64,000 nt of DNA from Takakia lepidozioides (Eukaryota > Plantae > Bryophyta), in NCBI GenBank assembly GCA_030704615.1, contig CM060734.1, forward strand, positions 34,038,001 through 34,102,000, read 5' to 3'. A program made the translations under genes and the position numbers. The notes beneath the pieces are model-generated. The model was not told where the DNA came from and did not search any database. It saw nothing but the letters and a program-made list of their open reading frames with translations. Below are positions 7,250 to 57,306 of this stretch, one piece after another (the first letter of the stretch is position 1; each line of letters starts with the position of its first letter).

Positions 7250-7975
7250 TTTTGTTACCCCAGTGGTTTTGGGCTCAATTTTTTTATGAAATGGTTTTTA
7301 TTGTTGGAACCATTTGTTCAATAGCATCATCCTACAATGGTTTGGACACTTGTCTGTTTTTCAAAGTCAGTCATAGGTGCACAAACCACTTAAAGTTTTT
7401 CATGTATCACCACAAAAGTGGTACCAATCACTGTTGTGTAGGCAACCATTCACGAGTGACCACTAGAATAGTGGTTCCAATTACTGCAGTGTCTTTCACC
7501 ACCCACTCTCCACCACTGTCAAAGTGGTACAAATCAATGAGGGGTCTTTAACCACTCAAGATCAACGTGCACTGTCCCCATCCATGTGGAATATTATATT
7601 TGTTAATTAAAATAGATTTCCAAATCATAAATCATAAATAAAATTTGAATTATTACACGTGGAGTAGCAAGTGGTTTCTACCACTTCCCATCACTGAGGT
7701 GTCTATAACCACTCACAATGTACCACTGCACTCGTCCACGTGGAATATTATATTATATTAATTAAAATATATTATAAAATAATAAATAATAAATAATAAC
7801 AAATTATTACACGTGGACTACTGAGTGGTTGAAACCACTTCCAATCACTGTCTGTGATGCTACCGTGGCATTTCATTGGGATTAACCACTGACAAGTGGT
7901 TACTAGTGGTTTATAGAGTGGGAAAAGACAGTAGTGGTTAAAGGGCCAGTGGTTATTTCACGTTTTTCTTTAGTG
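7250..7975. mobile_element. CACTA (En/Spm) transposon terminus with subterminal repeats
   Basis: Ends ...CACGTTTTTCTTTAGTG at 7975 (reverse complement CACTAAAGAAAAACG); dense ACCACT/AGTGGT motifs in both orientations; abruptly truncates the adjacent retroelement frame; partner end not found. Confidence 0.7.
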
Positions 7976-8189
7976 TCAACCCGAGAAAAATCCCCAACCT
8001 CATCCATCACCGCCGCCTTGGCTGCCAACTCCCTCTGAACCTCAAGCACCTCCCACGTGTGCCGTGGATGCCTACACCCCGTGGTCCTCACATGCTCGCC
8101 CCCACTCACTGCCTGTACTATCTCGGTATGCAGAGAGACCATCGAGGGAAGTATACTCCGCACTATGCGTTGCTCAGCCATAGCCAAAC

Positions 8190-9120
8190 TGATAATCTAG
8201 GTCAAGCAATTGAGAACCATTGCTTGCCCCAATACCTGACAACATGATGCCTCAGAAAGAGAAGACACCACCGTGGTCCCAGTGGAAAAACCCATCGCCC
8301 GCTCACACTCGTCAGCATTAGGCTCCACTAATTGCTGCAACTGAGCATCCTACAGGAGGCCAGGTCCACTATCCCGGAAAGCATGCGATCCTGGGAAGCT
8401 GAGCAGTGTAGGTAATGCTGCTCGTGGTTGACCCACCTTGTTGACCACTGCCAAAGGTGAACGGTCATCGCGTCTCACACGTTGAGACTGCCTCCCTGTG
8501 TCCAAAATACTATCCACTATGAGGTGTGCTGGCCGCTGCACCCCATCAAATGCACGCTTAAGCAGTGCAGGTGACATCAAGTTAGTCCACCATAGCCGTG
8601 GGCGATGAGCCCGTGACCCCACTGCCATGACCGGACTTGATGCACTCTGGCCATCACCTTGGCCTGAGAATCGCCCAACAGTGGCACATTCTCCAAGATG
8701 TATACTGGAGATACAACTTGATGAAGTTGTAAGTGGCGCAAAACCCGCACCATCTCCCAAAACAGACCCGACCTTGAGTCTCGCAATCCATTATCATGCC
8801 CAGCTGATGAATGCCCTTGGCAGGGCCAATCTGACACTACCAAATTAATGGAGCCAAACCGCTCCAAATCCTGCGCCCCCAGCAAAAAAAAGTCTGCTGG
8901 CAAGGCTTGCTGATATCCATGAACCGCAAACACTGGTAACAACTCAGGGTACTGTTGCACCAACTGAGCAACATGGCGAAGTGAAACACGTCGTGCAGTC
9001 TCATACCTCTCCACATACAAATAACGTCGAACTCGTACACCTGCCTGTAGCACAGTAGCCAATCCGGTGCTGATCCCGCCAAACAAGTCTAGAAGGCAAA
9101 TGTCTTTATCTGGATACTGC
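8190..9120 (-). pseudogene. DNMT3-like C5 cytosine DNA methyltransferase catalytic domain (frameshift and stops)
   Basis: Motif I LLDLFGGISTG, II YLYVE, IV DWPCQGHS, R..LFWE, VI YILENV, VIII AHRPRLWWTNL (after a frameshift near 8625), IX ECERAMGFSTGTT, X VLGQAM. Confidence 0.92.
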
Positions 9121-9478
9121 CACACAGTACGTGTGGTGTTCAATGGAGACAACTGAGGTGGTCCTGGTGCAATCCCTGCACTCTCCTCCTCTCTTGATGG
9201 TACAAAAACCTCTATCCAGGCTTGTTGTACCCGTCGATCAACAACCCGTTGCAAATCCTTGCTCGTGCCCCACAATGGAGTCTGAGTAACCATGGCAGGA
9301 AACTCCGCCATACTATACATGTCATCATGCTGTCCTGGAGGTGTGTCATCCTTTGAATGAGCATTGCCCTCTAGCAACTCTCCAGGCCAAGTCACTGCAG
9401 CTGTGAATGTTGCTAGTGTCGGCATCTTGCCCCGCTGGGCAACCGCAACTCCTCCTACGTCACAGGGAGCTGCACATG

Positions 9479-9910
9479 CTAGCCCTCCCCTGACTGCCAT
9501 CCAGGCCTATAGGAAGCTGACTCCTCCCAAAAATCCAGGGTGAAGCCCATGGGGTACAACATTGCCCCACCAACCAGGACATCGTACGAGACTGCGTCTG
9601 TCACAATGGCCTTGGCTCGCATCACTGAGCCATCTGTAGGGTGATCCGGCCGTAGTCTAATAGTCAACTCACGTCGTGTCATGCCCCGAGCCTACTCCGA
9701 TCCTCCCAGAGATGTCTGTATTTGGAAATGACAAGGCTCCATATCCACCTCCGTGAGGCCCAAGCCTGCAATAGTAGCTCTGCCTAGCATCAACGGCTGA
9801 GCTCCCGAGTCCAACAAGACCCTCAGTGGGTACCTCTTGCCTGCCGGTCCACTCAAACAGAAAATACCCTCCTGTTTGTCTAACAAGACAACCCCAGGTG
9901 TCACCATGGC
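9479..9910 (-). pseudogene. Retropepsin-type aspartic protease
   Basis: LRVLLDSGAQPLMLG active site and C-terminal YDVLVG motif in the same frame (ORFs 9692..9967 and 9479..9682) across one stop. Confidence 0.85.
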
Positions 9911-10099
9911 ACGCTCAATGGCTGGCCTAGCTGGCAGCTGCAGTTTGCCATGGCGCCGCCGTGGCAATCTTGACCCTCAAATCCAATGATCCCTCCGCCA
10001 CTACACCTTCCACTATCTCCGCAGAAGATGAAGTGACCTTCCTACTCTCACAGAGTATCGCTGCCAGTCTGAACACTACTGCAGGTCTTACCCTCGGCG

Positions 10100-11118
10100 C
10101 CGCAATCATGGTTGCCGAGAACAATGGAGCCTGACACACAGATGTGCCGCCCCCAACAGCACACTAGCTGCCGTAGCCTTGGCAATAGGTAGTGGTGCTG
10201 CCCGTGTAGCTCTCCCCAATGGCGCAATAACCTCTGCCTCGGTAGCAGTTGGGCAAGCATTAAGTGCCATGGATGGCGTCGACCCTGTCTCCGCCAATGT
10301 GAATGATTGAGGCAGCCTAGCCCGACAGCTTGCCTCCCCACGTTGTGGATCCAACTCCACCTCTGCACCTCGTGGCTCAGGAACTCGTACTGCTCCTTGA
10401 GTCACGGCTGCAGCAGACTCCACCTGCATTAGTGGTAATGCTACCCCGTACATGAATCCCATGCCTCCCATATCTCCTCCCTCAGGAGCAAGAGGTGGAC
10501 CCTCAGGCCTTGGAGCTGATACCACCTGAGTTGTGGCCATGGCAGCAAGCCACTGCTCTAGCTGCTGAAGCCGGTTGGCCATGCCTTGGTCAACACCCTG
10601 ACCTCTCGTCCCTGGCCATGCTGAGCTTGCCCTTGGCCTGCACCTCGTGCCTGACCACCTCGTCCTCTTTGAGCTGCTCCACCTCGCCCCTGGCCACCAT
10701 TATTCCGTTGGAACTGGGCCTGGCCGCAGCTCAAGGTGCAAATCATAACATTTGGCCTCTCCATGCCCATACTTGCCACAATGCCCACACTGCAACTATG
10801 CAAGCTGTGCCTGGGCTAACCATTTGTCGTTCTCTGGGCAATCGTTCTTGACATGGGGTCCTCCACATGTCCAACACACCACATCCACCCGTTGTTGGCC
10901 TGCAAATGAAGGAAGAGACCCCTACATCTGAGGTCCTCTCTGTCCTTCCCTGGGCTTCACCTGAGCCCCTTGTTGCCTTGAGCACGTTGAGGTAGTGGTT
11001 GGCTAGGAGCACCACTACCCCACAGTGTCTCAGCAAATCCCACCATGACCACTCGTTCCTCCACCATGTTGAGCTCTATCCGCTCTGCCAGCAAAAACAC
11101 ATTTGCTAAGATTGGTGG
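10100..11118 (-). pseudogene. Gag remnant with CCHC zinc knuckle
   Basis: 10748-10789 reads CGHCGKYGHGEAKC (CX2CX4HX4C), followed by an RG-rich stretch and short coiled coil (MANRLQQLEQWLAAM). Confidence 0.75.
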
Positions 11119-11207
11119 ACTAGTGGTATACTAGTATGTGGTGTGCACATGTGTTTGTGTGGTTTTGGACAACGATGTAGTTGTGTAGCGATATGTATGC
11201 GCACGAC

Positions 11208-12710
11208 ACTGGTAATGCATATAAAAACATTAGTTATTTCAAAGGTTTGTAGAAAGCAGGATAGTGTGGTGGTTAAGGGCAATGAACTATATATTTGTAT
11301 AATTGTTCTTTCTGAAAATTTCCTAAGTCTTTGTTCTTCTGTGGTGGCGGACCTTCCAGCGGACTGGGTGAGTCCACTCTGCATGTAGAGTGGATCCTCT
11401 AGCAGACTTACAGAGTGGACTAGACTGCAGAGTAGACCCTCTCGAGCCCGGTGGACCCTCCAGCAGACTCTCTAGAACAGACTAGACTATCCAATGGACC
11501 CTGGGGCGGACCCGGTGGGTGGGCGCTGGGCTTATGAACTGACCCCATGGGCTGTACTGGCAGGCCCAATAAGGCGCATTGAAGACGATATTATCTTAAA
11601 ATGAGAGGTTTTTTATAAGGAGCACATTTTGCAGCAAATACCACTACCTTCCTACCAAGCTTAAAAAAATGTCGGATTATTTTTTTGTGGCTCCTTTGTC
11701 AAGACGAGCATAGGCAGCAAAAACTTTCACTGTTAATTGCTACAATCGCAATCCATTGAATTTGGAAATTTGCAATGGCGAGTGAGTGGGGTATTATGCT
11801 GGCCTCTCATTTTAAATTATTAGGGTCTTCAACGCAAGCATGTCATGAGGGCCAAGGTGGGGGTCGCATACCCGCGTCCCTCCACCCACACTCACCTAGC
11901 GCGGGCCAAACCGTGGGCCCCACGGTGCGGTCGGTCCCACCCCTCCTACACAGCGGTTGGGCCCTCCGCGGCCCCACCACCACCCCCCCCCTTCCCCCCG
12001 CCCCTCCCTCGTTGGACCCCCGCGCCATCTCGGGTCTGTTGGATCAACTTGGACCCGCCCTGCCATATTGATTGGATCCCTTCGGCACCTTGGTTGTCTT
12101 GCTCTCGGATCCCCCTGCAAGGTCCACAAATCCCCCTCACGTAGCTCTAAAAGTTGGACACCCTCGTTGGACCCCCACGCCATGTTGGGTCTATTGGACC
12201 CCCATGTCTGCCAGGTGTCTGCCAGGTCGGTTGGATCCCTCCGGCACCTGGCTCTGGCTCTTGGATCTGTGTGCAGGGTGCGTGATCATTTCCCGGCCAC
12301 AAAAAGGCACATAACTCGGCATAACTTCACACCATGAGACCTGGAGGTGAGTTACCACCTCAAAACTTTTCAGAATTTTCCACCATAAAAGTTGGGAGTT
12401 TTAAACAATTTAGTGGAGGATACAAGAGAATCCAAGTAGCTTTTGGAGGAAATGTTTTTGGCTTTCTTATGGAGTTTTTTAAGTAGAAGGTATTGTCCAA
12501 ATTTTTTTAGGGCTTCTCATTGAAAGATAATAGCGTCTTCAATGCGCGCGCGTGTGCCTACGACGGGGCCTACGTGTGGCAGAGGGGCCCTATGGGAGCG
12601 CCCCTACCCGTCGGAGGGTCCGCCACGGCTCAGTTTGCTCAGTCCGCTGCTGGGTCTGCTGGACCTAGCCAGTCTGCTACGGCCCATAAAACACATAAAC
12701 ATGTACTGGT
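11208..12710 (+). mobile_element. ~1.5-kb internally deleted non-autonomous element bounded by ACTGGT direct repeats
   Basis: 11208-~12230 is repeated at 12705-~13700; 12283-12710 is repeated at 3428-3830; ACTGGT at 11208-11213 and 12705-12710; ~33-bp internal inverted repeat at ~11574-11606 and ~12515-12547. Confidence 0.7.
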
Positions 12711-15650
12711 ATGCACATAAAACATTAGTTATTTCAAAGGTTTGTAGAAAGCAGGTTAGTGTGGTGGTTAAGGGCAATGAATTATATATTTGTATAATTG
12801 TTCTTTCTGAAAATTTCCTAAGTCCATGTTCTTCTGCGGTGGCGGACCTTCCAGCGGACTGGGTGAGTCCAGAGTGGATCCTCTAGCAGACTTACAGAGT
12901 GGACTAGACTGCAGAGTGGACCTTCTCGAGCCCGGTGGACCCTCCAGCAGACTCTCTAGAACAGACTAGACTATCCAATGGACCCTTGGGGCGGACCCGG
13001 TGGGTGGGCGCTGGGCTTACGAGCTGACCCCATGGGCCGTACTGGTGGGGCCCATAAGGCGCATTGAAGACAATATTATCTTAAAATGAGAGGTTTTTTT
13101 AGGAGCACATTTTGCAGCAAATACCACTACCTTCCTACCAAACTTCAAAAAATGTCGGGTTATTTTTTTGTGGCTCCTTTGTCAAGGCGAGCATAGGCAG
13201 CAAAAACTTCACTTGTTAATTTGCTACAATCTCAATCCATTGAATTTGGAAATTTGCAATGGCGAGTGAGTGGGGTATTATGCTGGCCTCTCATTTTAAA
13301 TTATTAGGGTCTTCAATGCAAGCATGTCATGAGGGCCAAGGCGGGGATCGCATGCCCGCGTCCCTCCACCCACACTCACCTAGCACGGGCCAAACTGTGG
13401 GCCCCACGGTGCGGTCGGTCCCACCCCTCCTACACAGCCGTTGGGCCTCCGCGGCCCCCACCCTCACCCCCCCCTTCCCCCGCCCCTCCCTCGTTGGACC
13501 CCCGCGCCATCTCGGGTCTGTTGGATCAACTTGGACCCGCCCTGCCATATTGATTGGATCCCTCCAGCACCTTGATTGTCTCTCGGATCCCCTACAGGGT
13601 CCATGAATTCCCCTCACGTAGCTCTAAAAGTTGGACCCCCTCGTTGGACCCCCACGCCATGTTGGGTCTATTGGACCCCCATGTCTGCCATGTCGGTTGG
13701 ATCCCTCCGACACATGGCTCACCTGGCTCCTGGATCCCCGTGCAGGGTGCATGAATTCCCTTGCCTGCGGCACCGTCAATTGGACCCCGCTCGTTGGAAC
13801 CCCTATACCAGGTCGAATCTGTTGGACCCCGTCATCGTTTGTTGGACCTCTTGCCTGCTATGTTGTCTGACTCTCAGATCCCCCTGTAGGGTATGCTTTC
13901 CGCAACATCTGGCCCATCCAAATGAAAGGCATCGCAACCATCTATTTCTAGGGCATCGACATGTCCATCGAAGCAAATTCAGCCGCATGCCACCATGCGC
14001 GCTTCTTCGAGGCTTCTTCTAGCTGAAAATGTGCATCTTGTTTCTCCATTGCGCTTCCCTTGTAGGTTCTGGAGCATATGTTGTACTGTACATTTTCATG
14101 GAACAAACCACAGGCGATGACAAATTTGAAAGCAAAAGTCCTCATATTCTGCCTCTTCGCTAATGTTTGCAAACACCAAAGGAGGGGCCATTTAACAGTA
14201 AGAATCTCCATTGGAAGACTGAAACCCATCATGGGGGGGGGGATCAAGTGCATGTTCAAAAGGCGTGCATACTGTGGAATAGAGTGGAGGACTTTGTACT
14301 TGGAGAGGAGAGTTCAGATAAGTGTCATACTCGGTAGTTTAACATTCATGCGCACGTGAATCTTCAACCTAGAATGCGGAGAGCTCCAAGAGCAAACACA
14401 TTCTAGTATCACGATATGTGCACCTTTATCACATCAGTCACTTGCTCATTAGGTTGTTTTTATGTGTGTTTTGATATAAACATGGTACATACTTTGCTTG
14501 CATGATTCTACAACACCATGGATATCAAGTGTATATTTCATGCCTAGGTTCCATTGCTACTATAGTCCGGAGGACAAGCGTACCTGCAACAAAGTCGATG
14601 TGACAGATCCTAAAGTGAAGCGTGGATGACCTAATATAGTGGCTGGAACAAGCAACCTTCATAAAGGCCCAAGGAAAAAAAATCTACATATGGGGAGTCA
14701 TACAAGCGCGGTTGTCAGTGTTCTTTCAAGGTCCAACAATGCTATCTCACTCCTGACATTTACATTATCACATACTACATTGTACAACTCCATGGAGCAT
14801 CTTGATCTTCAAGGAAAGCTGTCACATGGTAGTTATGTAAACTTCCGAAGCACACAATAACCCTATGCTCCACGTATTAGTAGAGCTCAAAATGTGGATC
14901 ATGGAATGTTTGTGCCGCGGTTTGTTGGTGACTTAAATCATGATGGAACATAAAGAGTATGTCATGAAGAACACAAGATTGGGAGATGCATGGACACATG
15001 ATGATTTCCTGCTTAAACAAGATGTGTGGAACCTTGCTAAGAAACGAGCTACCTGGCAGACCTTCAGAAAACACAATAACGATGCCCAAAGTGTCCGGAT
15101 GTGGAAAGATCAAAATCCCAAAGCCATGTTTTTCTATCAAGATGAGACATTGGTGCCAACTTTCCAACATTACAATGGAGACTTTCAGACATTCATTATT
15201 GAAACAGAGTGGCAGAATCAAAAAATGTTGGAATTAGGCCACGCATGGAATGTTGCATGCGATTTAACTTTTGGAACAAATCATCACAAGGTCTGCTTCC
15301 TGACCTTCTTCATGTACCTTCCAATTAATGTTCATAGACCTTGGGCGGACCCTTCAGTAGACCCTCCATGACCAGTAATTCGCTTGACACATTGTCTTCC
15401 TACAATAATTGCGATTTGCACCATCCATGTGCATGCCAACACTTTCTATATCTACACGTTGATAGTATTTGACAAGTGGTTAAACGACATTCCGGTGGCA
15501 TATGTCATGTTAGTGCAGAATCAAACCACATACCTCATCCCTTGGATAGCAGCCTTGGGTGATACCATCTTTACATATAGGCCGAAAATGGCGACCCAAG
15601 ACTGCATTGTGGACGATGTCGAAGCAGAATTCAATGCGATTCAGTAAGTC
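12705..15650 (+). mobile_element. Longer, right-truncated copy of the same element carrying a decayed transposase-like gene
   Basis: First ~1 kb duplicates 11208-12230, continues through GGACCC/GGATCC-rich repeats into the MULE/SWIM-like pseudogene; right boundary uncertain. Confidence 0.55.
14200..15645 (+). pseudogene. MULE/SWIM-family transposase-like gene (resembles the Arabidopsis At4g13970/At1g60560 family), multi-exon, decayed
   Basis: ILWNRVEDFVLGEE, RFHCYYSPED, HNNDAQSVRMWKDQNP..FFYQ, ACDLTFGTNHHK, YTLIVFDKWLNDIPVAYV, CIVDDVEAEFNAI; family match is from recalled motifs. Confidence 0.75.
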
Positions 15651-20349: not shown

Positions 20350-23344
20350 TTAGATTCTTTCACACTCGTGTGTCTCTTCTATAGATACCTGGTCCATGTC
20401 ATCAGAAAATAATGATAAGTTGAGAGTCTCTGGTCGGAAGGAGTCATGCTTCACTGAGGGGAGCTTCGCTGGAACGTTTGTAGATCCACTCAGCATTTGC
20501 CACACCTCGCGCATTGTAGGTCGAAGAGGCAGAATCCTGTGTGCACAGTCTGGCCACTTTGGCCATGTCCAAGGCCTCCTTCTCAACGACCTCACCTACT
20601 AGCTTGGGATCCACAAGCTTGAGTAGATCTTCAGGCTCCTCACCCACTTGATTCGCCCAATTCATCAGCACAATTTGTTCGGATGGAAGTGAAATGTCTA
20701 AGACTTTCCGACCGCTCAGGAGTTCGAACAGCACAACTCCGAAACTGAACACATCAATCTTCTCCGATATCTGTGAACAAGTCACATACTCTGGAACAAG
20801 TTCATGAACAAGACGATCAATGACAAAAATCTATAGTGGCTCTGAACTGATATTAGTCTGACCTAAATGAGTTCAACCACTAGAATTCATCATGTAACAG
20901 GTCTCTCACAGCAAATATATGTACAATAGGTCGAAGTCTTGTCCCAAGTCTGGAAGTCTTGAAGTCGGTGGCAAGTGCCTTTCAAGCATCCCTAGATACA
21001 TTTAATAGAACATTTGATCATCTGTACTGGTAAGCTTTGAAAAACATACAATGACACTGATCTAGCTGCTCATGCACATGTAGTAGCAAACAGCGAAAAT
21101 GATTTTAGTCAGTATATGAGGCTCTACCTGGTGCGAGATAGCCCACCGTCCCCTCTATGTTAGTTGTCGAGATGTGCGAAACCATGTCATCGCACACAAG
21201 CCTTGAAAGTCCGAAATCAGCAATGCGTGGATTGTTGTCGGCATCCAGGAGGATGTTTCCCGGCTTCATATCACAATGAATAATGCGGTGCTTCAACTCA
21301 TGATGCAAATATGCAAGGCCACACGCTGTTCCAATGGCGATGTTGCGACGCGATTCCCATTCCAGCACATGCCCTTCATTCCTATGCAAAAGATCTGACA
21401 AGCTTCCATTGGGCATGTGTTCGCACACCAAAAGTGGGAACTCGGTATCAATGCAGCAACCCCGTAACATGAGCAAGTTGCGATGTTGCACAGAGCTAAG
21501 GATTGTCATCTCCCTCTTGAAGGAGACTTTGCTTTTATGGCACTTTTGGGTGAGTTGCTTGATGGCTACAACAGACTTGTCTCTCAGCACCCCTCGATAT
21601 ACCGTACCAAACCCTCCTCGGCCAATGATGTTGGCGTCACTGAAATCATCTGTAGCATCCTGGAGCTCCTTATAAGAGTAGAAAGCAGACCGGTTGAAGT
21701 CATCTGAAAGGAGACCGTCGGGGTCCGCTTGTGCACCACCGAATCCGGATCCTTGCTGATCTTTTCTCTTCCAGATAAAAGCCACTAGCCGCGACAGAGC
21801 AACAAAAACAGCAACAGCTCCCAGAGTTGCTCCAATGTACTCCTTCCATTTTGTTTTGCGTCGATGGCGCTGCAGCAGCTCTACAGAGATACCTGACACC
21901 ATTGGCCCCGTCGCATTTGCAAGGTATCCTACGTTAGGATAATTTATCCAGCGTCCTAAGTTACCGGCATAAAGAAACTCAATTTTCAAGAGCCCATCTG
22001 TCACATCCACCTGCACGACCTTTCTGAAAGCTACACAGCTGCCTACTTCTTTTACCACATCTAGTTTCGAAAGAACGAGATTTCCTTGTACCATCACATC
22101 AAAAACACGGTAGCGCGCTGGAAGCTGGGTGAAGACAATCTCTGCAAAGTAGAGACTGACATTATACGTTCCGCTTCGCATGTTGATGCCATAGTAAGCC
22201 ATGTAGACTGGAGCCCATCGCATGGATCGAAAGATCTCCATTTCGTCCGCAGAAACGTTTGAAATTGCTCTTGCAACCGGACCCACCGTGCTGCTTGGAT
22301 AGTCTGGCTTGTCGCTGGAAACTTGCAAGGCCCAGGTGTTAGTTGGATCAACCATCATACCTGTAGATTTGTCAAACGATATTAAATCCGGCTGGAATGT
22401 AACTTTATCGCTATTTGTGACAGAGCTGTAATCACCGACATTAATTGCAAACTGAGAATTATCCCCTGGTGAAGACTGAAAGCCTGACAATACGCTTGAG
22501 TTCGGAATGGGGGTACTGCATGAGTTGAAGAGGGTGTTGTTTGCTATGCGCAAGCTCGAAGCAAGATCACTGGCGCCAGAGCCGAAGCAGTTGAAGGAGA
22601 AATCCGCCTGCAAGTTCGTGGTGTTCCAAGATGCTTTCTTGGTGAAATCCAGAGATCCTGATAGAGAATTGTGAGAGACATCCAGTATGTTTAGGTTAGA
22701 GAGATTAGCACCAATACTATCGGGGATACCACCACTCAAGTTATTGTGACTCAGAGACATAACCTGCAGTCTCGAAAGATTTCCAAGAGATAGAGGGATG
22801 ATTCCTGAAAGATTATTGAAACAGAGAAATAGAGTTGTCAAGTTGGGATTGTTGGTGCCAAACTGTGGTATCTGGTCTGAGAAGTTGTTCCTTGCCAAGA
22901 ACAACTCAGCAAGTGCAGGCATTTCCTCCAAAACAGCTATCCCACCGGAAAGGTTGCTGTTGTCAAGCCTCAAGCTCCATACATCGGTGAGTTTCCGGAA
23001 TGTGCTGGGGATGGGGCCACTGAAGCCATTCGTCAAGGTGCAGCTCCTGGAGAAGGGTTAGACTACCCAACTCTGAAGGTATGAGCCCCGACAAATTGTT
23101 GTTTGACAAGTGAAGTTGCTGAAGGCTGGTCAAGTTTGCAAAGGCTGCAGTGGGAATGACACCCTCCAGCAGGTTGACGTCGAGCCAAAGTATTTTGATC
23201 CACATCCGACGAATTCAACTGCAAGACCAACTGAATGTCCTGAAGAGCGCTTAGTTCGCCAGCGGCTAAAAAGCCGGCTTCCACCAAAGATCTTGGCGGC
23301 AGAAGACAACCGATCCATACACAAAGAGTCATGTTAGTCCACAT
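20350..23344 (-). pseudogene. LRR-malectin receptor-like kinase (LRR-VIII-like architecture), non-RD, three apparent frameshifts
   Basis: Signal-like N-terminus, plant LRRs (LxxLxLxxNxLSGxIP), malectin (YNVSLYFAEI, RVFDV, GPMVSGI), TM, kinase (GRGGFGTVY, VAIK, HCDMKPGN, DFG, GYLAP|EY); intron 20791-21127; frameshifts near 23200, 23035 and 20525. Confidence 0.9.
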
Positions 23345-23408
23345 GGTTACAAGAACAAACTTTAGCTGTGCTATTATTGTTGTATAGCTGGAAATTTCGG
23401 AGGTGACA

Positions 23409-24805
23409 CTAACAAAACCCAGAGAACAATATTGTTTTCACCAACCATTCAGGCCATTGCCCCACCAGATCCTCTTTCTGAACCACCTCATCCTCCACAG
23501 GTGCTGCAGCGTCCTTATATTCTACCCTTGGTACCTCCGTCACAGGTATTACATGCACAGCAGGGATTTCCCTGGACAAACTTTGCACCTCTGGAACCAC
23601 TGATTCCCTTACCAAGCCAGAGTTTACATAGAGAAGTTCACCCTTCTCAATTTCTGCCACGACCTGCTCTGTAGTGGGAATGTCCAACCTTTCTCCGTCC
23701 AGAGCAATTGGGGGTGGTGTCACAGCATGTTCTAACTGTGGAACCTCTGAGACAACTGAGTCAACTGGCTGTGATGGCTGTGGTACCGAAGTGACTTCTT
23801 CTTCCCTCTCCGAAGGCCGTGCTTCCAATAATAACAGCCCTTTGTGCTGCTGTGCCTCATCCTGCACAAGAGCTTGGGAAACATCATCTTGCGGTTTCCG
23901 TGAAGCCAACGGATCCGCCACTACAGTCATACCCCGCTTCTGTCTCTTAGACTGGTGTTGCCCTGCCAGTCCACCCTCACTATGTGAAGAGCCCTGCTCT
24001 TCAATTGCAGTGGTTACTGCCTCAAACACTCCCATCTCCTTACGTTCCCGAGTATTAAGTATGCAAGAGTCAAGAATGATTTGGGCAATAACTGGACCAG
24101 ACACAATGATCAGAGACTTAGCAGCAGTGCCCTGTAATCTCTTCATTTCTTCCACCAGACCATTGTACATTAACTCTGCCCAAGCTACATCCTCTCCCCT
24201 CAAAGCTTTCAGGATCTCCTCTGTGAATGACCTGCTCAAATATTGTTGGTTCTGTTTCATGGCAAACAGAACATTCAATATTTGGCCGACTTCTCTGAGC
24301 CCTGCGTACTCGGCTTTGGTACAAGCGTAACCTTGAGTATTAAAGAAACTCCCTTCTTGGAACAAATTCCCTATCTGCAATCTTGCCCTGTGCTCATCCA
24401 CATCTACATGACCCAATGGCAAATCAAACAATTGCTGCAAGTACTGGGGAGTAATTTCTATATCTACTCCCCTCACCTGGGTAACTCCCGTCCGAGGCTC
24501 AAAGTTCTGAAGAAGAAATTGAATCAATACTGCCGATGATGCAAGGACCAGTCCTTGCGTAGCAGCCCCTCCAATCGCAACTCCCTCAGCAGCTGCACTG
24601 CCTGCGGTGTAGCAATTGTTTGCTTCTGCATAATCGTGGTGCTCTTCACCCTGATATCCTCCATTCCCCTCACTCTCTTCATTCTAGCCAAACAAAAAGG
24701 CCTTGTTTGAAACAGCTGAAGAAAAGCTTGCAGGGCACAGAGCATAAAGGTATGGTTGGCATAGAATGGAACAGGTAAGTGCGTGTAAGCCTGTGGGGCT
24801 TGCAA
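23409..24805 (-). pseudogene. Extra 3' ORF of copy A (Athila/Tat-type accessory 'plant transposon protein' domain)
   Basis: VRGVDIEITPQYLQQLFDLP motif; homologous frames at 36.4-38.1, 41.0-41.7 and 50.7-52.1 kb. Confidence 0.7.
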
Positions 24806-25530: not shown

Positions 25531-28500
25531 CTATGATGGGCTGTGATAGGTTGTGTCACACTGTGATGGGTTGTGATAGCTATGCGAACACCTGTACTTC
25601 CCGCCCTGGTCATACACGCTCGGCTTAGCGACAAGTGCTCCGCACTCCGTTGGTATCACTGGCGCAGCCCGTGACTGTTTTTGTGTTTCAACATGCAAAT
25701 CGTGCTGCAATGGTTTGTCATGGATACCACTGTATCCCTTCAACTTATTGGCATTGACTCTTCCCAGCATTTCTTTGTTAATGGTTTGTAACATGGCGGT
25801 GTTATTATCATACATCTTCTGTATGACATAAGGTCTTTTCCATGGTGATTTAAGCTTAGAAGCTTTAATCTTCCCCTTCTTCTGCAACCATAGTACCAAA
25901 TCTCCCGTCTTAAAAGTCTTTAATTTACCTTCATCAAACTGATCATTCTTCTTCATCTGAATTCTGGTCATGTTATCAGCACGTACTTCTTCCACATGGT
26001 ATAATTCATGTTTCTTGATCTTAATTGAATCTTCCAATTCCATTCTCCTTCCCCATTCAGTTCTCATGGTAGTAAAGCTTCCATACCATAAACTAATTGG
26101 AATGGTGTATACTTAGTGGTGACTTTATATGAAGTCTTGTATGACCACAAAGCTGTCAGCAGCTTTGTATCTCAATCTGTTCTGTTTGCATTGACTATCT
26201 TAGCCAAGATAGTACATAGTATTTTGTTGGTAGCCTCTGCCTGCCCATTACCCTGTGGGTAATAAGTTGTACTCTTCCTATGCACAATCATGAACTCTTT
26301 AGTCAATAGTTCTATGGTCTCATTAATGAAGTGACTTCCCAGGGGACAGCCAAATCGTGTAAGTATGTTCTCATACAAGAACCTTGCTGTGGACTTAGCT
26401 GTGTTGTCCCTCAGAGCTTTAGCTTCCACCCACTTTGTAGTATAATCAGTGGCTGTGATTATATATTTGTTCTGTGTATTCTTGGCTGGTGGGTTAATTG
26501 GTCCAACAAAGTCTAGTCCCCATTTCTGAAATGGTTCAGTAGGCATCGTAAGATGCAAAGCCATCTTCCCATATCTCTGCAATGGTCCTAGCCTCTGACA
26601 CTCATCACAACTCTTACAATACTTGTGGACATCCTTGAACAAAGTAGGCCACCAGTAACCTGCAAGTAGTATCTTTCTACTGGTAGTCTCTTCTCCAAAA
26701 TAACCTCCAGCCACTCCTTTATGAATTTCCTCCAAAACTATATTTACTTCATGGTGGTACAAGCATCGTTTAAGAACTCCATCAGGTCCTAGCTTATACA
26801 TTCTGCCCCCTACCATAGTATAAGGTAAAGCCTTGATAGCGATTCTCTTCCTCTGTTCCTTTCCATAACTAGGTGGGCACTGACCATGAGTAAGGTAGTA
26901 TCTGATTGGCCACTGCCAATCTAACCAGTCATCTGCACTTCCTTGCACCTCCACCGCAAATAAACTCGCATCAGGTAATTGGTCGTCTACTCCTGTGGCG
27001 GGCTCTCCTGTTGATAGACGTGACAAGTGATCTGCCACAAGATGCAAACGGCCAGGCTTGTAAACAACTTCGAACTCAAACTCGTGCAAGATTATTAACC
27101 ACCTTGCTATCATTCCACTTATCAAAGGTTTGTTCACCAGATATATCAGAGCCTGGTAATCCACATAAAACATAAACTTCCAACCCAATAGGTAATGCCT
27201 GAATTTCTTAACTACATATATCATTGCCAGTGCTTCTCTTTCGGTTGTGCTATAGTTCCTTTCAGCACTGTTCATCAACCTGCTAGCATAGTACATAGGT
27301 GAATCTATATTTCTTGTAATATTTTGGGCTAACACTGCTCCCAACGCTTCTCGTGAGGCATCACAGTGAACATGAAATACTACATGCCAGTGAGGGTTAA
27401 TCAGCACAGGTGTAGTTGTTACTGACAATGTAAGTTCCTCAAAAGCCTGTTGACATTCAGCTGTCCATGCAAACACTGCATCTTTCTTCAGAAGCTTGCT
27501 CAATGGTGCTGCTACCTGTGCATACCGTCTGACAAATCATAGGTAATAACTGGTTTGTCCAAGGAATCTCCTTAGACTCTTAACATTTACTGGTGGTGGA
27601 GAGACTTTAATGGCCTCTGTATTTCTGGGATCCACAAGCAGTCCCCTCTTACACACAATGTGTCCCAAAAGCACTCTTGAGTTCACACAGAAAGTACACT
27701 TCTCTGGATTCAGGCCCAAACCTCTCATCCTGCATCTGGCCAAACATAACTCCAATTTATGCAAGTGATCATTCTTAGAGCTGTACACATTGAAATCATC
27801 CAAGAACACCTGCATGAAATCATCCAGATACTCATGGAACGATTCACTTATCACTCTCTGAAAGGTTGCTGGTGCATTACAAAGTCCAAAAGACATAACT
27901 TTGTATGCATAAGCACCCCAGTCTGTGATGAAAGTTGTCTTTCCCTGGTCTTCTTCTACCACTTGCACTTGATTATAACCACTGAAGCCATCCATGAATG
28001 AGTACATCTCATGGCCTGCCACGGTGTCCAATACCGCTTCTGTGAATGGCAAAGGGAAAGGATCTTTCATCGTACAAGCATTCAACTTCTTATAGTTCAC
28101 ACAAACTCTCAGTTTACCATTCTTCTTGGGAACTATCACAATGGGTGACAACCAAGTTGTATACTCTATCGGGTATATAAACTTAGCCTCAGCCAACTTC
28201 TTGATCTCTTCTCCAACCTTCTGTGCATAGTTGGGATTCATTCTGTACCTTGCATGTTTGATTGGTACTGACCCTGGTTCCAGTTCAATCTTATGCTGAC
28301 AGATCTCAGGTGGTATCCCTTTCAGATCCTCATAGCTCCAAGCAAATACATCTCTGTATTTGATGAACAGACTCTTAGCTTCCTCAAAGAATTCTGGCTC
28401 CAAATCAGCCCCTACCTTCACCATCCTCGGTTCCCCTTCAGTTCCCACATTCACTTCTCTCACCTGCTCATCAGCTGTGATTGTCCATCCAGTCACCACT

Positions 28501-29230
28501 TCATCCTGTAAACTCACAGTGGCTGGTTCCTCTAGGATTTCCATTTCTCCCTCTTTTTCTTCATAGAAATGTGGTGGGTAACTGCTTGTTTCACCCTCAA
28601 TTGGTGTTGCTATCACTACACCACAACAGATACCTTTTAAACAACTTAGGCCTTCCAGTTGCATCTCTACAACCTGCTCCCACTCTGGGTGTGCAGCGAA
28701 TAAGGTAGCTTCCTGCTCCTCATCAAGTCCTCCCCTCCAGTCATACTCCCTGACCCCTCGAGGTCTTCTTGTAGCAGGTAGTCTACTAGATTTCCTAGTG
28801 GTGATTGTATCTTGTGCATCCCATCATGCACAGTTAGTAACTAGGAATTCCAGTCATGGAATACCCTGGCCTGTTTCAGCCACGGTCGACCCAGCAATAA
28901 GGAGTAAGCTTCCATAACTTCATCCATTTTCAACACAGTTACTGTGATCATAAAGATCATCTTTTGAATCTGTATCTTAACTCCTCTTATCAATCCCAAT
29001 GGCTGTACACTTCTTTGATCTGCCATTGTTACTGTAAATGGGGCTGGTTTCATGTTACTTAGACCAAGCTTCTGCCTTAATTGGTCTATCATGATATTCA
29101 CTCCAGAGCCTCCATCTATCAGTACATCAGTTAGTTCTGTGCTTCCAATTCTCAATTGGATTATTGGCATAGAATCATCAAAGTCCATGACTGTTTCTCG
29201 CCCTTCCGGCTTCACATTATAACTGGTCAC
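25531..29230 (-). pseudogene. pol (PR-RT-RH-IN) of copy A
   Basis: ORFs 28841..29230 (PR), 27537..28664 (RT), 26172..27503 (RH-IN), 25531..26067 (IN C-terminus). Confidence 0.95.
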
Positions 29231-46200: not shown

Positions 46201-49200
46201 CCAGTCCAAAGTGGAGATTACGATTGGACAGTTATTGGCTGTGGCACCTTATTGTAGGCACAGGCTGTATCAAGCAATCAATCAGGTTGCCCATGAGACA
46301 GAGAACACAAGCATGAATAGCAAGGTGACCAGTTATAATGTGAAGCCGGAAGGGCGAGAAACAGTCATGGACTTTGATGATTCTATGCCAGTAATCCAAT
46401 TGAGAATTTGAAGCACAGATCTGACTGATGTACTGATAGATGGAGGCTCTGGAGTGAATATCATAACAGACCAATTAAGGCAGAAGCTTGGTCTAAGTAA
46501 CATGAAACCAGCCCCATTCACAGTAACAATGGCAGATCAAAGAAGTGTTCAGCCATTAGGTTTGATAAGAGGAGTTAAGATACAAATTCAAAAGATGATA
46601 TTTAAGATCACAGTGACTGTGTTGAAAATGGATGATGTCATGGAAGCTTACTCCTTATTGCTGGGTCGACCATGGCTGAAACAGGCCAGGGTATTCCATG
46701 ACTGGAATTCCCAGTTACTAACTGTGCATGATGGGAATCACAAGATACAAATCACCACAAAGAAATCTAGTAGACTACCTGCTACGAGAAGACCTCAAAG
46801 AGTTAGAGAGTATGACTGGAGAAGAGGACTTGATGAGGAACAGGAAGCTACCCTGTTCGCTGCACACCCAGAGTGGGAGCAGATTGCATAAATGCAACTG
46901 GAAGACCTAAGTTGTTTAAAAGGTATCTGCTATGGTGTAGTGACAGCAACACCAATTGAGGGTGAAACAAGCAGTTACCCACCACATTTCTATGAAGAAA
47001 GAGAGGGAGAAATGAAAATCCTAGAAGAACCAGCCACTGTGAGTTTGCAGGATGAAGTAGTGACTGGTTAGACAATCACAGCTGATGAGTAGGTGAGAGA
47101 AGTGAATGTGGGAACTGAGGAGGAACCAAGAATGGTGAAAGTAGGGGCTGACTTGGAGCCAGAATTCTTTGAGGAAGTTAAGAGTCTATTCATCAAATAC
47201 AGAGATGTATTTGCTTGGAGCTATGAGGATCTGAAAGGGATACCACCTGAGATCTGTCAGCATAAGATTGAACTGGAACCAGGGTCAGTACCAATCAAAC
47301 ATGCAAGGTACAGAATGAATCCCAACTATGCACAGAAGGTTGGGGAAGAGATCAAGAAACTGGCTGAGGCTAAGTTCATATACCCGATAGAGTATACAAC
47401 TTGGTTGTCACCCATTGTGATAGTTCCCAAGAAGAATGGTAAACTGAGAGTTTGTGTGAACTATCAGAAGTTGAATGCTTGTACAAAGAAACATCCCTTC
47501 CCTTTGCCATTCACAGAAGCGGTACTGGACATTGTGGCAAGCCATGAGATGTACTCATTCATGGATGGCTTCAGTGGGTATAACCAAGTGCAAGTGGCAG
47601 AAGAAGACCAGGGAAAGACAGCTTTCATCACCGACTGGGGTGCTTATGCATACAAAGTCATGTCTTTTGGACTTTGTAATGCACCAACAACTTTTTATAG
47701 AGTGATAAGTGAATCTTTCCATGAGTATCTGGATGATTTCATGCAGGTGTTCTTAGATGACTTCAGTGTGTACAGCTCTAAGAATGATCACTTGCATAAA
47801 TTAGAGTTATGTTTGGCCAGATGCAGGATGAGGGGTCTGGGCCTGAATCCAAAGAAGTGTACTTTCTGTGTGAACTCAGGGGTACTTTTGGGACACATTG
47901 TGTGTAAGAGGGGACTGCTTGTGGATCCCAGAAAGACAGAGGCGATTAAAGCCTCTCCACCACCAGGAAATGTTAAGAGTCTAAGGAGATTCCTTGGACA
48001 AACCAGTTATTATAGAAGATTTGTCAGACGGTATGCACAGATAGCAGCACCATTGAGCAAGCTTCTGAAGAAAGATGCAGTGTTTGCATTGACAGCTGAA
48101 TGTCAAAAGGCTTTTGAGGAACTTACATTGTCAGTAACAACTACACCTGTGCTGATTAACCCTCACTGGCATGTAGTATTTCATGTTCACTGTGATGCCT
48201 CACGAGAAGCATTGGGAGCAGTGTTAGCCCAAAATGTTACAGGAAACATAGATTCACCTGTGTACTATGCTAGCAGGTTGTTGAACAGTGCTAAAATGCA
48301 CTATAGCACAACTGAAAGAGAAGCATTGGCAATGATATATGCAGTCAAGAAATTCAGGCATTACCTATTGGGAATGAAGTTTATGTTTTATGTGGATCAT
48401 CAGGCTTTGATTTATCTGGTGAACAAGCCTTTGATAAGTGGCAGGATAGCAAGATGGTTAATAATCTTGCACGAGTTTGAGTTTGAAGTTGTTTACAAGC
48501 CTGGCTGTTTGCATCTTGTGGCAGATCACTTGTCACGCCTAGCAACAGGAGAGCCAACCACGGGAGTAGACGACCAACTACCTGATGTGAGTTTATTTGC
48601 AGTGGAGGTGCAGGGAAGTGCAGATGATTGGTTAGATTGGCAGTGGCCAATCAGATACTACCTTACTCATGGTCAGTGCCCACCTAGTTATGGGAAGGAG
48701 CAGAGGAAGAGAATCGCTATCAAAGCTTTACCTTACATTATGATAGGGGCCAGAATGTATAAGCTAGGACCTGATGGAGTTCTTAAATGATGCTTGTACC
48801 ACCATGAAGTAAATATAGTTTTGGAGGAAGTTCATAAAGGAGTGGCTGGAGGTCATTTTGGAGAAGAGACTACCAGTAGACAGATACTATTTGCAGGTTA
48901 CTGGTGGCCTACTTTGTTCAAGGATGTGCACAAATATTGCAAGAGTTGTGATGAGTGTCAGAGGCTAGGACCATTGCAGAGATCTGGGAAGATGGCTTTG
49001 CATCCTACGATGCCTACTGAACCATTTCTGAAATGGAGACTATACTTTGTTGGACCAATTAACCCACCAGCCAAGAATACACAGAACAAGTATATAATCA
49101 CAACCACTGATTATACTACAAAGTGGGTGGAAGCTAAAGCTCTGAGGGACAACACATCTAAGTCTACAGCAAGGTTCCTGTATGAGATCATACTTACAAG

Positions 49201-52114
49201 ATTTGGTTGTCCCCTGGAATTTATCAGTGACCAGGGAAGTCACTTCATTAATGAGACCATAGAACTATTGACTAAAGAGTTCATGATTGTGCATAGGAAG
49301 AGTACAACCTATTACCCACAGGGTAATGGGCAGGCAGAGGCCACCAACAAAATACTATGTATTATCTTGGCTAAGATAGTCAATGCAAACAGAATAGATT
49401 GGGATACAAAGCTTCTGACAGCTCTGTGGTCATACAGAACTTCATATAAAGTCACAACCAAGTATATACCATTCCAATTAGTTCATGGTATGAAAGCTTT
49501 ACTTCCAGTGGAGTTCTTGTTACCTACCATGAGAACTGAATGGGGAAGGAGAATGGAATTGGAGGATTCAATTAAAGTCAGGAAACATGAATTATATCAT
49601 GTGGAAGAAGTACGTGCTGATGCAGGAGATAACATGACCAGAATTCAGATGAAAATGAATGATCAATTTGATGAAGGTAAACTGAAAACTTTTAATACGG
49701 GTGATTTGGTTCTGTGGTTGCAGAAGAAGGGAAAAATTAAGGCTTCTAAGCTTAAGTCACCATGGAAAGGACCTTATGTCATACAGAAGATGTATGATAA
49801 CAACACAGTCATGTTATAAACCATTAACAAAGAGATGATGAGAAGAGTCAATGCCAATAAGTTGAAGGGATACAGTGGTATCCATGATAAACCATTGCAG
49901 CACGATTTGCACGTTGAAACACAAAAACAGTCACGGGCTGCGCCGGTGATACCAACGGAGTATGGAGCACTTGTCATTAAGCGAAGCGTGTATGGCCAGG
50001 GCAGGAAGTACAAGTGTCACACAGTTTATCACAGCCCACCACAGTGTCACACAGTCTATCACAGCTCGTCACAGTCTGACACAGCCCAACACAGCCCAAG
50101 CGGGTTACACAGTCCATAGGGTTAGTGACAGGTGGACGTGGGTTAACGTCAGAAAAGTGGCCGACAAGTGAAAGGACAGCTTGGAAGTCAAGCTCGGAGA
50201 ATGTGGGCCACTTGGGCGAAGAACACCGCAGAGCATATATTGCAAAAGTGGGTGTCATCATGCAAGAGGACAAACCGGGCCGTCAAAGTACCTACCCGGT
50301 ACATCAACCAAAACTAATTGTGGGCCCATTCAAGCGTTCAGGGCAGAGGTAACGGAACCCTTTACGAGTACAGAAAAGGGGGACTTTTGCCACATGTGCT
50401 GTCCTAATGGACATTCCAGGTGGGAATGTCCACTGAGGGGGGTAAAATTAAGAAGTTACCTAAGGAGGCAACAGCCAATCAGGAGTGAGAATTTCATGCA
50501 GGTGGTTCCTTCCAAGAAACAAGAACAAGAAATTGGAAGAGTTATGAGCGGAAGAGTCGGGGTGGCTCCAAATAGCCAGTGTCTCGACGGGAGAGGCAAT
50601 CAAAGCTATAGCTTTGTAGCTATGGCGGATATTACAAATTATATGCTCGCTTTACTTCTTACGCAGTGGCACAAGGACGGACGGGTTGAGAGTACATTCT
50701 CTCTCACTTGATACTTGCAAGCTCCGCAGGCTTACACGCACTTACCCGTTCCTTTTTGTGCCAACCATACTTTTATGCTCTACGCCATGCAAGCTTTCCT
50801 AGAGCTATTTCAAACAAGGCCTTCTTTTTGGTCTGGGATGAAGAGAGTAAGGGGAATGGAGGATATCAGGGTGAAGAGCACCAGGATTCTGCAGAAGCAA
50901 ACCATTGCTACACCACAGGCAGTGCAGCTGCTGAGGGAGTTGCGATTGGAAGGGTTGCTATGCAAGGACTGGTCCTTGCATCATCGGAAGTATATGATAC
51001 AATTCATTCAAAACTTTGACCTTCAGACAGGAGTTACACAAGTGCGGGGAGTAGATATAGAGATTACTCCCCAATACTTGCAGCAATTGTTTGAATTGCC
51101 ATCAGGCCGTGTAAATGTGGATGAGCACAGGGCAAGATTGTAGATAGGCAATTTGTTCCAAGAAGGGAGTTTCTTTAAGACTCAGGGATACACTTGCACC
51201 AAGGCCGAGTACCCAGGGTTAAAAGAAGTTGGTCAGGTTCTGAACATTCTGTTTGCCATGAAACAGAACCAACAATACCTTAGCAAATCATTCACGGAGG
51301 AGATACTAAAAGCCTTCAGGTGGGAAGATGTGGCTTGGGCGGACTTAATGTACAATGGTTTGGTGGAAGAGATGAAGCGGTTACACGGCACTGCTGCTAA
51401 GTCTCCAATCGTTGTGTCTGGCCTAGTGATTGTGCAAATTATTCTTGATTCTTGCATACTTGATGCGCGAGAACGTAAGGAGATGGAAGTGTTTGAGGCA
51501 GCAACCACTGCAATTGAGGAGCAGGGCTCTTCACATGGTGAAGGTGGACTGGAGGGGCAACACTAGTCTAAGAGACATAAGCGGAATATGACTGTAGTGG
51601 CAGATCCACTAGCTTCAAGGAAATCGCAAAATGATGTTTCCATAGCTCTTGTGCAGGATGGGGCACAACAGCACAGAGGGCTGTTATTGCTGGAAGCACG
51701 ACCTTTGGAGAGGGAAGAAGAAGTCACTTTGGTACCACAGCCATCACAGCCAGTTGAATCGGTTGTCTCAGAGGTTCCTCAGTTAGTACATGCTGTTGCA
51801 CCATAGCCTATTGCTCTGGAAGGAGAAGGGTTGGACATTCACACTACAGAGCAGGTTGTGGCAGAAATTGAGAAGGGTGACCTTCTCTATGAAAACTCTG
51901 GCTTGGTCAGGGAATCAGTGGTACCAAAGGTGTAGAGTCTGTCTAGGGAAATCCCTGCTGTGCATGTAATATTGGCGGAGGTACCAGGGGTAGAATGTAA
52001 GGGCACTGCAGCACCTGTGGAGGATGAGGTGGTTCAGGAAGAGGATCTGGTGGGAACATGGCCTGAATGGTTGGTGAAACATCACACTGTGGAGGATCAG
52101 GGAGAACAGCAACA
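42365..52114 (+). mobile_element. Ty3/Gypsy copy D, 3'-truncated
   Basis: 5' LTR 42365-43293 (TG mutated to TA), PBS, 5' ORF, gag from 43891, PR 46454.., RT-RH 47093..48790, IN 48794..49819, 3' ORF 50715-52110. Confidence 0.95.
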
Positions 52115-56700: not shown

Positions 56701-57306
56701 CAGCCCGGCCAGCTCCGACCGGTGTCCCTCCAGGTGAAGCCCTCGCAGAATTTCAAGAATAGATCGAACTGCGGTGCTCGTGCTGGGAATATGACTCCCT
56801 CCTCCACTGACGTCCATTGAGGACTTGCCTGATCTCCAGGACGACCTCGGAACTTCCATGACCTCGTCTGAGTCGGACAGGTTGTGAACAACCCGGTTCT
56901 CGCTCGTCTTCATGGATGGGTTCGGCTCTGGATTTACTTCGTTGCGGACTTCTCTCTTTGAGGTAGCCACTCTCTGATTCGCGGATTGTTTCGTGGAAGG
57001 CGCCAGGATAGAAGGTGCATTTGGCGGGCAAATGAAGTCCCCAACAGCCCTGTATATGACGCTGTCCGATGGTGGAACTCGCCATTCCCTGCCATCGCCG
57101 AAATCATCGTGGAGCACAACAATACTCTCGACAACAAGGCCGTTTGAGTCCTTCCTTTCCTCCTCCAAAAAAACCGACCCCGGTTTCAGGTGGTATCGAA
57201 CGCACAGATATTTCTCCATCACCCGGCAGATGTCCCCTCTGCACGGAAATGAAGCTCTATGCTCGTGAGGAGGGCAGTACACTGTAGCGCTCGGGTTTTC
57301 CGCCAT
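53714..57306 (-). CDS. MULE-type DDE transposase, ~1,168 aa, with N-terminal GCM-like zinc domain and C-terminal SWIM finger; two exons (57306-55219, 55132-53714)
   Basis: Phase-0 GT-AG intron 55133-55218 joins ORFs 55165..57321 and 53714..55144; WVMFDH (D1), FMADNAQA (D2), CGFH (CxxH), PTTNMAESVH (E); CAGALRC..CAHC..HVGSHCH; SWIM CNC...PCKH; no stops. Confidence 0.85.

Follow-up and report, generated by a model that had tools for sequence, protein, structure and literature searches.

A defunct member of an abundant Ty3/Gypsy-type retrotransposon family whose Gag-protease frame also encodes a DNMT3-like methyltransferase, predicted to be active in live copies

Introduction

De novo cytosine methylation is the main weapon of the host against retrotransposons. 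To our knowledge, why some retrotransposons encode this enzyme themselves has been an open question since 2018, the hosts being algae that are hard to handle.

The closest described system is KnitGypsy-Dnmt3 of Klebsormidium nitens, a Gypsy element with a DNMT3-like domain (de Mendoza et al. 2018, PMC5890265). No methylation was observed with it in a yeast assay, which its authors call inconclusive (PMC5890265). SymbioDIRS-Dnmt3 of Symbiodinium is likewise a DNMT3 carried by a retroelement; its de novo CG methylation was shown in yeast, and methylation of the cDNA before integration was proposed as its role (PMC5890265). Methyltransferases are also carried by the LTR elements termed EpiLTRs and DAM-LTRs (bioRxiv 10.64898/2026.05.21.726589). 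The text of that preprint treats streptophyte Gypsy-DNMT3 as an established class, with Marchantia and land plants unmentioned; both this preprint and PMC12344493 say "streptophytes", and their supplementary trees may include bryophyte copies. Our search of the open-access literature, with figures and preprint supplements outside its scope, found no report of Gypsy-DNMT3 in land plants.

We analysed a stretch of DNA of 64,000 nucleotides (hereafter, the window), in which positions 7976-11118 of the minus strand hold a broken Gag-protease-C5-methyltransferase frame that is colinear with intact Marchantia proteins. The family of this copy shares with KnitGypsy-Dnmt3 the Gypsy domain set, an intronless and unpermuted DNMT3-like domain, and apparent constraint (PMC5890265). 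The order of knuckle, protease, and DNMT is also the same in the K. nitens protein GAQ93235.1 (P0220), which we assume to be a KnitGypsy-Dnmt3 copy. In the domain, however, the identity is just 33%. In addition, the DNMT of KnitGypsy-Dnmt3 shares its ORF with RT and RNase H (PMC5890265, authors' reply), whereas the first ORF (ORF1) of the land-plant relatives ends after the DNMT; and 33 DNA_methylase genes are listed for Klebsormidium (PMC5890265), whereas the window's family looks far more abundant. SymbioDIRS-Dnmt3 differs in being a DIRS element with the DNMT behind the RT region (PMC5890265), and the EpiLTRs and DAM-LTRs differ in carrying a sister of DNMT4, together with DAM and a chromodomain (bioRxiv 10.64898/2026.05.21.726589). 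The Gypsy-DNMT3 class is already known from Klebsormidium, and proteins of Klebsormidium and Closterium show the protease-DNMT order too, so that the arrangement itself belongs to a known kind. The present analysis adds the ORF split in the land-plant relatives and an RNase H-DNMT-integrase arrangement in an apparent sister group from chlorophytes.

Results and Discussion

Anatomy and decay of the window copy

The Marchantia protein Mp_4g09160 (P0005; 1278 aa) matched the window by tblastn in four colinear pieces extending from Gag to the tail (sum E 0.0); the two pieces that cover the methyltransferase were 56% identical. An earlier note on this DNA had described a Gag CCHC knuckle, followed on one strand by a retropepsin (LLDSGA) and by C5-methyltransferase motifs in canonical order, all without introns. 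The knuckle lay at exactly the coordinates given there, all of the named motifs were located on the minus strand (Table 1), and motif III was also readable at its canonical position between motifs II and IV. The Pfam check suggested in the same note returned PF00145 (DNA_methylase) in the window ORFs with an E value of 2.3e-9. The protease of the window gave a weak match to PF13650 (E 0.014), which in the relative P0035 was matched at 1e-5. A 31-nt deletion at 8623/8624 accounts for the sole gap within the methyltransferase domain, in keeping with the claim that introns are absent; the deletion removed motif VII and shifted the frame. The copy carries six in-frame stops (10924, 10798, 9694, 9481, 8352, and 8199) and five frame changes detected by tblastn, probably with two more in the G/R-rich stretch. 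No RT-RNase H-integrase half of the element was found within the window by tblastn with relatives. The window element is a dead, interrupted copy.

Table 1. Features of the element copy and its surroundings, in window coordinates
Feature	Position	Strand	Basis or remark
LRR-malectin receptor kinase gene of the host	20470..23437	-	protein matches; 10 kb from the element
~95 bp of a terminal repeat of very high copy number, joined to mid-gag	11113..11208	-	contig depth, flank duplicate
C-terminal part of Gag, broken	10838..11112	-	tblastn, motif positions; upstream of 11110 other copies go on in gag
First zinc knuckle, CX2CX3HX4C	10838-10876	-	absent from the motif list of the earlier note
Gag CCHC zinc knuckle	10748-10789	-	motif position
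G/R-rich stretch and Gag-protease linker, frameshifted	9941..10747	-	ORFs, tblastn
Retropepsin-type aspartic protease (LLDSGA 9800-9817; stops 9694, 9481)	9461..9940	-	Pfam, tblastn
C5-cytosine methyltransferase domain, DNMT3-like, with motifs in canonical order (stops 8352, 8199)	8152..9104	-	Pfam, tblastn, motifs
Motif I	9069-9095	-	
Motif II	9000-9017	-	
Motif IV (PCQ)	8814-8831	-	
Motif VI (ENV)	8682-8699	-	
Motif VIII	8581-8610	-	
Motif IX	8287-8310	-	
Motif X	8218-8235	-	
ORF1 tail, cut shortly before the stop of the relatives	7976..8151	-	tblastn, contig comparison
End of a presumed CACTA-type DNA transposon interrupting the element	7400..7975	-	terminus at 7975, subterminal repeats, 160-bp internal repeat

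Relatives and abundance of the family

The first homologue search yielded 44 relatives, with Marchantia polymorpha, Calypogeia fissa, and Sphagnum among the sources; Mp_4g09160 and Mp_8g17980 of M. polymorpha are intact ORF1s. The protease stood ahead of the DNMT in 30 of the 44 relatives, 13 were DNMT-only fragments, and the remaining one was a DIRS-type RT-DNMT protein. The homologue searches started from the DNMT, and the comparison of contig depths is independent of that start. In run X1, the summed depth was alike in the protease bins (6.4-8.1e5) and the DNMT bins (5.1e5-1.1e6), and the depth of the flank at 12172-12500 was only 110-138, lower by three to four orders; summed contig depth does not equal copy number, and we read these values only as meaning that the family is very abundant. 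A single contig of run X7 covers 8192-9829, from the protease through motif X.

Pfam and gene models revealed the domains lying past the DNMT in the relatives: RT and RNase H in P0019 and P0025, RNase H and integrase in P0022, and RT and integrase in P0039. P0169 holds the complete element set within one ORF. The family is of the Ty3/Gypsy LTR retrotransposon type, as judged from the knuckle and protease in the window and from the RT-RNase H-integrase order, which is seen in relatives only. Among 16 loci from one metagenome scan, none belonged to the family by tblastn; they were prokaryote-type methyltransferases and three DIRS-like elements. Loci L010, L013, and L015 resemble SymbioDIRS-type elements (our own label; L010 is 22% identical) and lie outside the family's clade.

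Type and conservation of the methyltransferase

DNMT3A ranked at the top of 42 matched PDB sequences (E 1.9e-15), with the best DRM-type entry, 4onj, at 2.2e-8 and HaeIII at 2e-5. The order of solved relatives by sequence and profile A2 was DNMT3A, DNMT3B/C, the DRM-type entry, and HaeIII and HhaI. For the intact homologue P0001, an AlphaFold model with a pLDDT of 92.9 had DNMT3A as its top Foldseek match (E 1.3e-18, target TM 0.84), and the matches listed were all DNMT3A/B/C. The methyltransferase is DNMT3-like by profile and predicted fold, the type that the earlier note had named; the assignment is based on this PDB ranking by sequence, profile, and fold rather than on a tree including host DNMT3.

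The host plant DNMT3 enzymes of non-flowering streptophytes, PpDNMT3a/b, likewise have a catalytic domain that is unpermuted and of the DNMT3 type (Yaari et al. 2019, PMC6453930). They possess a C-terminal DUF3444 (PMC6453930) and are encoded in several exons (PMC5890265), whereas the element enzyme is intronless, shows no DUF3444 match, and lies in the Gag-protease frame. In the Pfam scans, DUF3444 was matched in none of P0005, P0006, P0015, P0011, P0035, and the window ORFs, and no other targeting domain was found on the methyltransferase.

Within ORF1, the land-plant-clade proteins have conserved the DNMT best: four of them were 70-77% identical to P0005 in the DNMT, compared to 55-73% in the protease and 44-60% in the linkers. 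Motif VII, lost in the window copy, is present in 12 of 12 land-plant-clade relatives. The catalytic cysteine is conserved in 11 of 12 land-plant-clade domains, the twelfth having a gap, and in all 17 other protease-DNMT and all 70 chlorophyte-type domains. The glutamate of motif VI is found in all 99 domains, and both arginines of motif VIII and the glycine of motif I are near-invariant over the green-lineage domains (n=99). The proline preceding the catalytic cysteine is replaced, mostly by glutamate, in 49 of the 70 chlorophyte-type and 9 of the 17 other protease-DNMT domains, and the PC pair is kept in the land-plant copies. This conservation at the protein level argues for long selection on catalysis, and we predict that the enzyme is very probably active in live copies.

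Junction between DNMT and RT

The earlier note had expected a protease-DNMT-RT-RNase H-integrase order in a single frame, which turned out not to apply to the land-plant relatives; a stop follows the DNMT tail. ORF1 ends 96-100 residues past motif X in Marchantia P0005, P0006, and P0034 and Calypogeia P0015, and 100 residues past it in the Sphagnum type. Gene models joining the DNMT to RT skip the junction stretch, apparently by a predicted intron.

The junction was searched with the DNMT-tail/RT-start region of a Sphagnum fallax gene model as the query. Among the 120 listed of 782 matches, a census made up largely of decayed copies from one Sphagnum-type subfamily, 21 proteins, including two of S. 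jensenii, stop at one identical junction residue, nine continue into RT without a frame change and carry Y, W, L, or E at the junction, and 41 start at a methionine three codons downstream of it. No fourth behaviour was observed among those of the 120 that reach the junction motif. The Y, W, L, and E residues are one base away from TAG in nine of the nine cases; TAA fits seven and TGA five. Two further proteins, P0083 and P0099, cross the junction in another frame, and the sequence is thereby fixed as TAG-CAA-CCC-ATG. For the Sphagnum-type subfamily we thus deduce, from proteins in two frames, an in-frame UAG, then CAA-CCC-AUG, and then the RT frame.

In the land-plant elements, the DNMT appears to lie ahead of a stop, together with Gag. 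The window copy ends just short of the junction, and we consider that the same ORF split probably exists in the window's host. Some plant Gypsy groups similarly show a split between Gag-PR and RT, the first ORF ending after the protease side (PMC6317226); unlike these, the element relatives add a methyltransferase to the first ORF. There is no stop between the DNMT and RT in Closterium and in the relatives P0169, P0215, P0300, P0325, and P0329, and the split is therefore not needed for keeping the domain.

The junction resembles the readthrough site of the Tobamovirus type in its in-frame UAG followed by CAA. The signal of TMV is UAG-CAR-YYA (PMC2754532), and the CAA-CCC context fits CAR-YYA at five of six places. 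The element relatives differ from the Tobamovirus type in having CAA-CCC in place of CAR-YYA, together with an in-frame AUG (PMC2754532). Re-initiation could occur because an in-frame methionine lies three codons after the stop. We nevertheless lean slightly towards the view that RT, RNase H, and integrase would be produced at a lower level by readthrough, rather than by re-initiation at the AUG or by splicing.

Trees and spread in the green lineage

The larger DNMT tree contained 136 domains of at least 290 residues, with shorter ones and five same-cluster duplicates excluded. The smaller tree contained 40 of the 136 domains, which were picked by hand, leaving out near-duplicates as well as P0166 and P0308 for their long branches; search iterations were limited to 120. 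Both trees were built without host DNMT3 or DRM sequences. In the 40-domain tree, the window copy fell into a land-plant clade (UFBoot 100, with P0002), its sister being the copies from liverworts and of the Sphagnum type (97 and 100). The proposal of a land-plant family is upheld by this position and by the Marchantia, Calypogeia, and Sphagnum relatives. The position of the window copy seems compatible with vertical descent, although the two liverworts were placed apart. The green-lineage domains stood apart from the Symbiodinium-type and bacterial ones, with UFBoot values of 46-87 at the deep nodes of a tree without host DNMT3.

A profile search of 1.84 billion representatives found 471 proteins at E <=1e-30. 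In the best 150 of the 471, the architecture calls, which were made by local profiles and checked by Pfam for 29 proteins, gave 27 proteins in which the DNMT follows the protease or precedes RT and 71 in which it follows RNase H or directly precedes the integrase; 52 were DNMT-only. The 71 proteins mostly carry a PHD finger. Among the nine proteins with a species name, out of 30 looked up, the DNMT-after-protease type was found in Klebsormidium nitens and Closterium, and the RNase H-DNMT-integrase type in Scenedesmus, Haematococcus, and Cymbomonas. The chlorophyte type was recovered as one clade by the DNMT tree, at a UFBoot of 97, and also by the RT tree (0.91), which had only two outgroups. 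The simplest reading would be one old DNMT3 capture followed by movement of the domain, although the deep nodes are weak in a tree built without host DNMT3.

Proposed role of the enzyme

We think it fairly likely that the window holds a dead copy of an abundant Ty3/Gypsy-type family whose ORF1 encodes Gag, a protease, and a predicted active DNMT3-like enzyme that is packaged to methylate the cDNA before integration. In live elements, Gag-PR-DNMT would be translated in bulk and RT-RNase H-integrase would be made through occasional passage of the UAG; the element protease would then free the DNMT inside the particle, the freed enzyme would methylate the new double-stranded copy ahead of integration, and new insertions would arrive pre-marked like host DNA. 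The DNMT of the land-plant elements would accordingly be made at the Gag level, not with RT as in algae. We give an even chance to the more specific point that the main target of the DNMT is the element's own cDNA.

An active enzyme may instead work in the nucleus, with integrated copies or the chromatin of the host as its substrate, and either damp the element's own expression or mark competitors or target sites. The Gag-side frame would yield far more enzyme than one cDNA requires, the PHD finger after the integrase in Marchantia P0040 and most chlorophyte-type elements points to chromatin reading, and self-limitation has been raised for such elements (PMC5890265). However, the enzyme is fused to Gag or Pol in every architecture seen, which ties it to the particle, and the Pfam scans found neither DUF3444 nor another targeting domain; we regard nuclear action as unlikely. 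It is still less probable, indeed improbable, that the domain is kept for binding DNA or RNA (base flipping, or protection or packaging of nucleic acid) with methyl transfer being incidental. The lack of a signal from KnitGypsy-Dnmt3 in the yeast assay (PMC5890265) and the frequent replacement of the proline before the catalytic cysteine outside the land plants would agree with a binding role, but the catalytic cysteine, the glutamate, the motif VIII arginine pair, and the motif I glycine are near-invariant in the green lineage, and PC is kept in land plants. Chance juxtaposition, or a one-off host DNMT3 retrocopy beside a Gag-protease relic, the grounds for refutation named in the earlier note, has a negligible probability: the protease is in front in 30 of the 44 homologues, the depth over the protease and the DNMT is equal and a contig bridges them, the match to P0005 runs colinearly through the window copy all the way from Gag into the tail, DUF3444 is not matched, and the copy takes a retroelement-clade position in a tree built without host DNMT3.

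Returning to packaging and cDNA methylation, a broader scenario can be drawn, which we offer tentatively and with more doubt than belief. A Gypsy lineage may have acquired DNMT3 just once, early in green plants, and may still thrive at very high copy number, with a leaky UAG in land plants bringing bulk DNMT into particles so that insertions would be pre-methylated, and with the domain moved between RNase H and integrase in chlorophytes.

The ORF split provides a handle on the mechanism, since an enzyme produced in the same amounts as Gag points to a role across the whole particle. Marchantia polymorpha is open to genome editing and has a met1 mutant (bioRxiv 363937); together with its intact ORF1s, these make the question of function testable. 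If the broader scenario is true, some of the de novo 5mC in the genomes of lycophytes and bryophytes could come from this family without having been recognised as such. Element ORFs are annotated as ordinary host genes, which can inflate DNMT counts in these genomes.

Ends of the copy and flanking DNA

The earlier note had regarded the copy as dead through frameshifts and stops and truncated at both ends. Its death and the truncation on the 3' side were borne out, but a plain truncation on the 5' side was not; there, a terminal repeat that reaches beyond the coordinates of the note is joined to mid-gag. On the 3' side the element is cut at 7976 by a terminus that, from its terminal motif, we take to be of the CACTA type. 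This end forms a separate depth class of about 3e4 in the summed contig depth of run X1, and 46 contigs of the same run carry other sequence past 7976.

On the 5' side, the summed depth in run X1 drops from 8.6e5 to 1.8e3 at 11209/11210. The terminal-repeat piece peaks at 2.2e6, about twice the internal depth (up to 9.7e5 in the adjacent gag), and 69 contigs exit at the 11209 end with dissimilar flanks (agreement 0.42). A duplicate of the flank at 12600-12830 is without the terminal-repeat piece. No listed contig bridges the terminal repeat to gag, and no second terminal end of the element was found within the window. The segment 11113-11208 is likely the end of the element's own LTR, joined to mid-gag via an internal deletion, its membership in the element being judged from these data. 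A Helitron end, or capture within the CACTA element, was considered as a reading of the 5' flank and dropped in view of the terminus at 11208 and the element-like depth.

RT matches at 26.2-28.8 kb, 33.3-35.0 kb, and 47.1-49.3 kb were also considered as the RT of the element and were assigned to another Gypsy family; their identity to the family's RT is about 30%. The host LRR-malectin receptor kinase gene had its best match in Diphasiastrum complanatum (65%, 887 bits; 120 listed of 2885 matches), and among these listed matches the next was from Selaginella (42%, 472 bits), with the others at 361 bits or less.

Related methyltransferases in other retroelements

A DNMT3-like domain also occurs in Gypsy polyproteins that form a large clade, reach 3456 aa in length, and have the domain order RT-RH-DNMT3-like-INT-PHD; in many of them, Glu replaces Pro before the catalytic Cys. 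The members with a species name are all from chlorophytes (Scenedesmus, Haematococcus, and Cymbomonas), and no description of this clade was met in the passages of the literature consulted. A further arrangement is seen in P0044, a protein of 1417 aa in which the RT is followed by a DNMT3-like domain and then by a Dam-type adenine methyltransferase; P0044 is a DIRS-like element carrying two methyltransferases. The elements at three metagenome loci, labeled by inspection, resemble in layout SymbioDIRS-Dnmt3, the DNMT3-bearing DIRS retroelement of Symbiodinium (PMC5890265).

Among the liverwort and Sphagnum copies (P0005 from Marchantia polymorpha, P0015 from Calypogeia fissa, P0039, and P0053), the identity is 76–77% in the DNMT and approximately 77–82% at the start of the RT. 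This identity is high given the age of the lineages, and may result from either strong constraint or horizontal transfer.

Sequence context of the element

The element is richer in GC than the other Gypsy copies in the window (0.55 versus 0.43), and its CpG observed/expected ratio is higher than those of two such copies (see the table below). On its 5' side lies a 1.05-kb duplication, and the boundary of one duplicate coincides exactly with the end of the element. As for insertion sites, the Phygy elements of Physcomitrella are said to prefer NCGN sites (PMC6317226).

Another Gypsy family is represented by several nested copies, one of which adjoins the 5' end of the host LRR-malectin receptor kinase gene, near 23437.

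Retroelement members and features of the window (window positions unless a locus or protein is named)
Feature	Position or identifier	Detail
RT-RH-DNMT3-like-INT-PHD clade	P0176, P0196, P0205, P0241, P0280, P0313	and others
RT-like frame, DNMT, downstream tyrosine-recombinase-like ORF	L010:5708-10825; L013; L015	by inspection
Element	7976-11110	CpG observed/expected 0.47
Gypsy copy	26175-28823	CpG observed/expected 0.20
Gypsy copy	47093-49816	CpG observed/expected 0.12
Duplication	11208-12285; 12705-13754	92% identical
Other Gypsy family	23545-52874	both orientations, 86-98% alike
ORFs resembling MULE-type or related transposases	14937-15371; 53717-57444	by eye
Tandem array	4.8-6.5 kb	180-bp unit
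Tandem arrays	57.5-63.8 kb	53-, 95-, and 96-bp units
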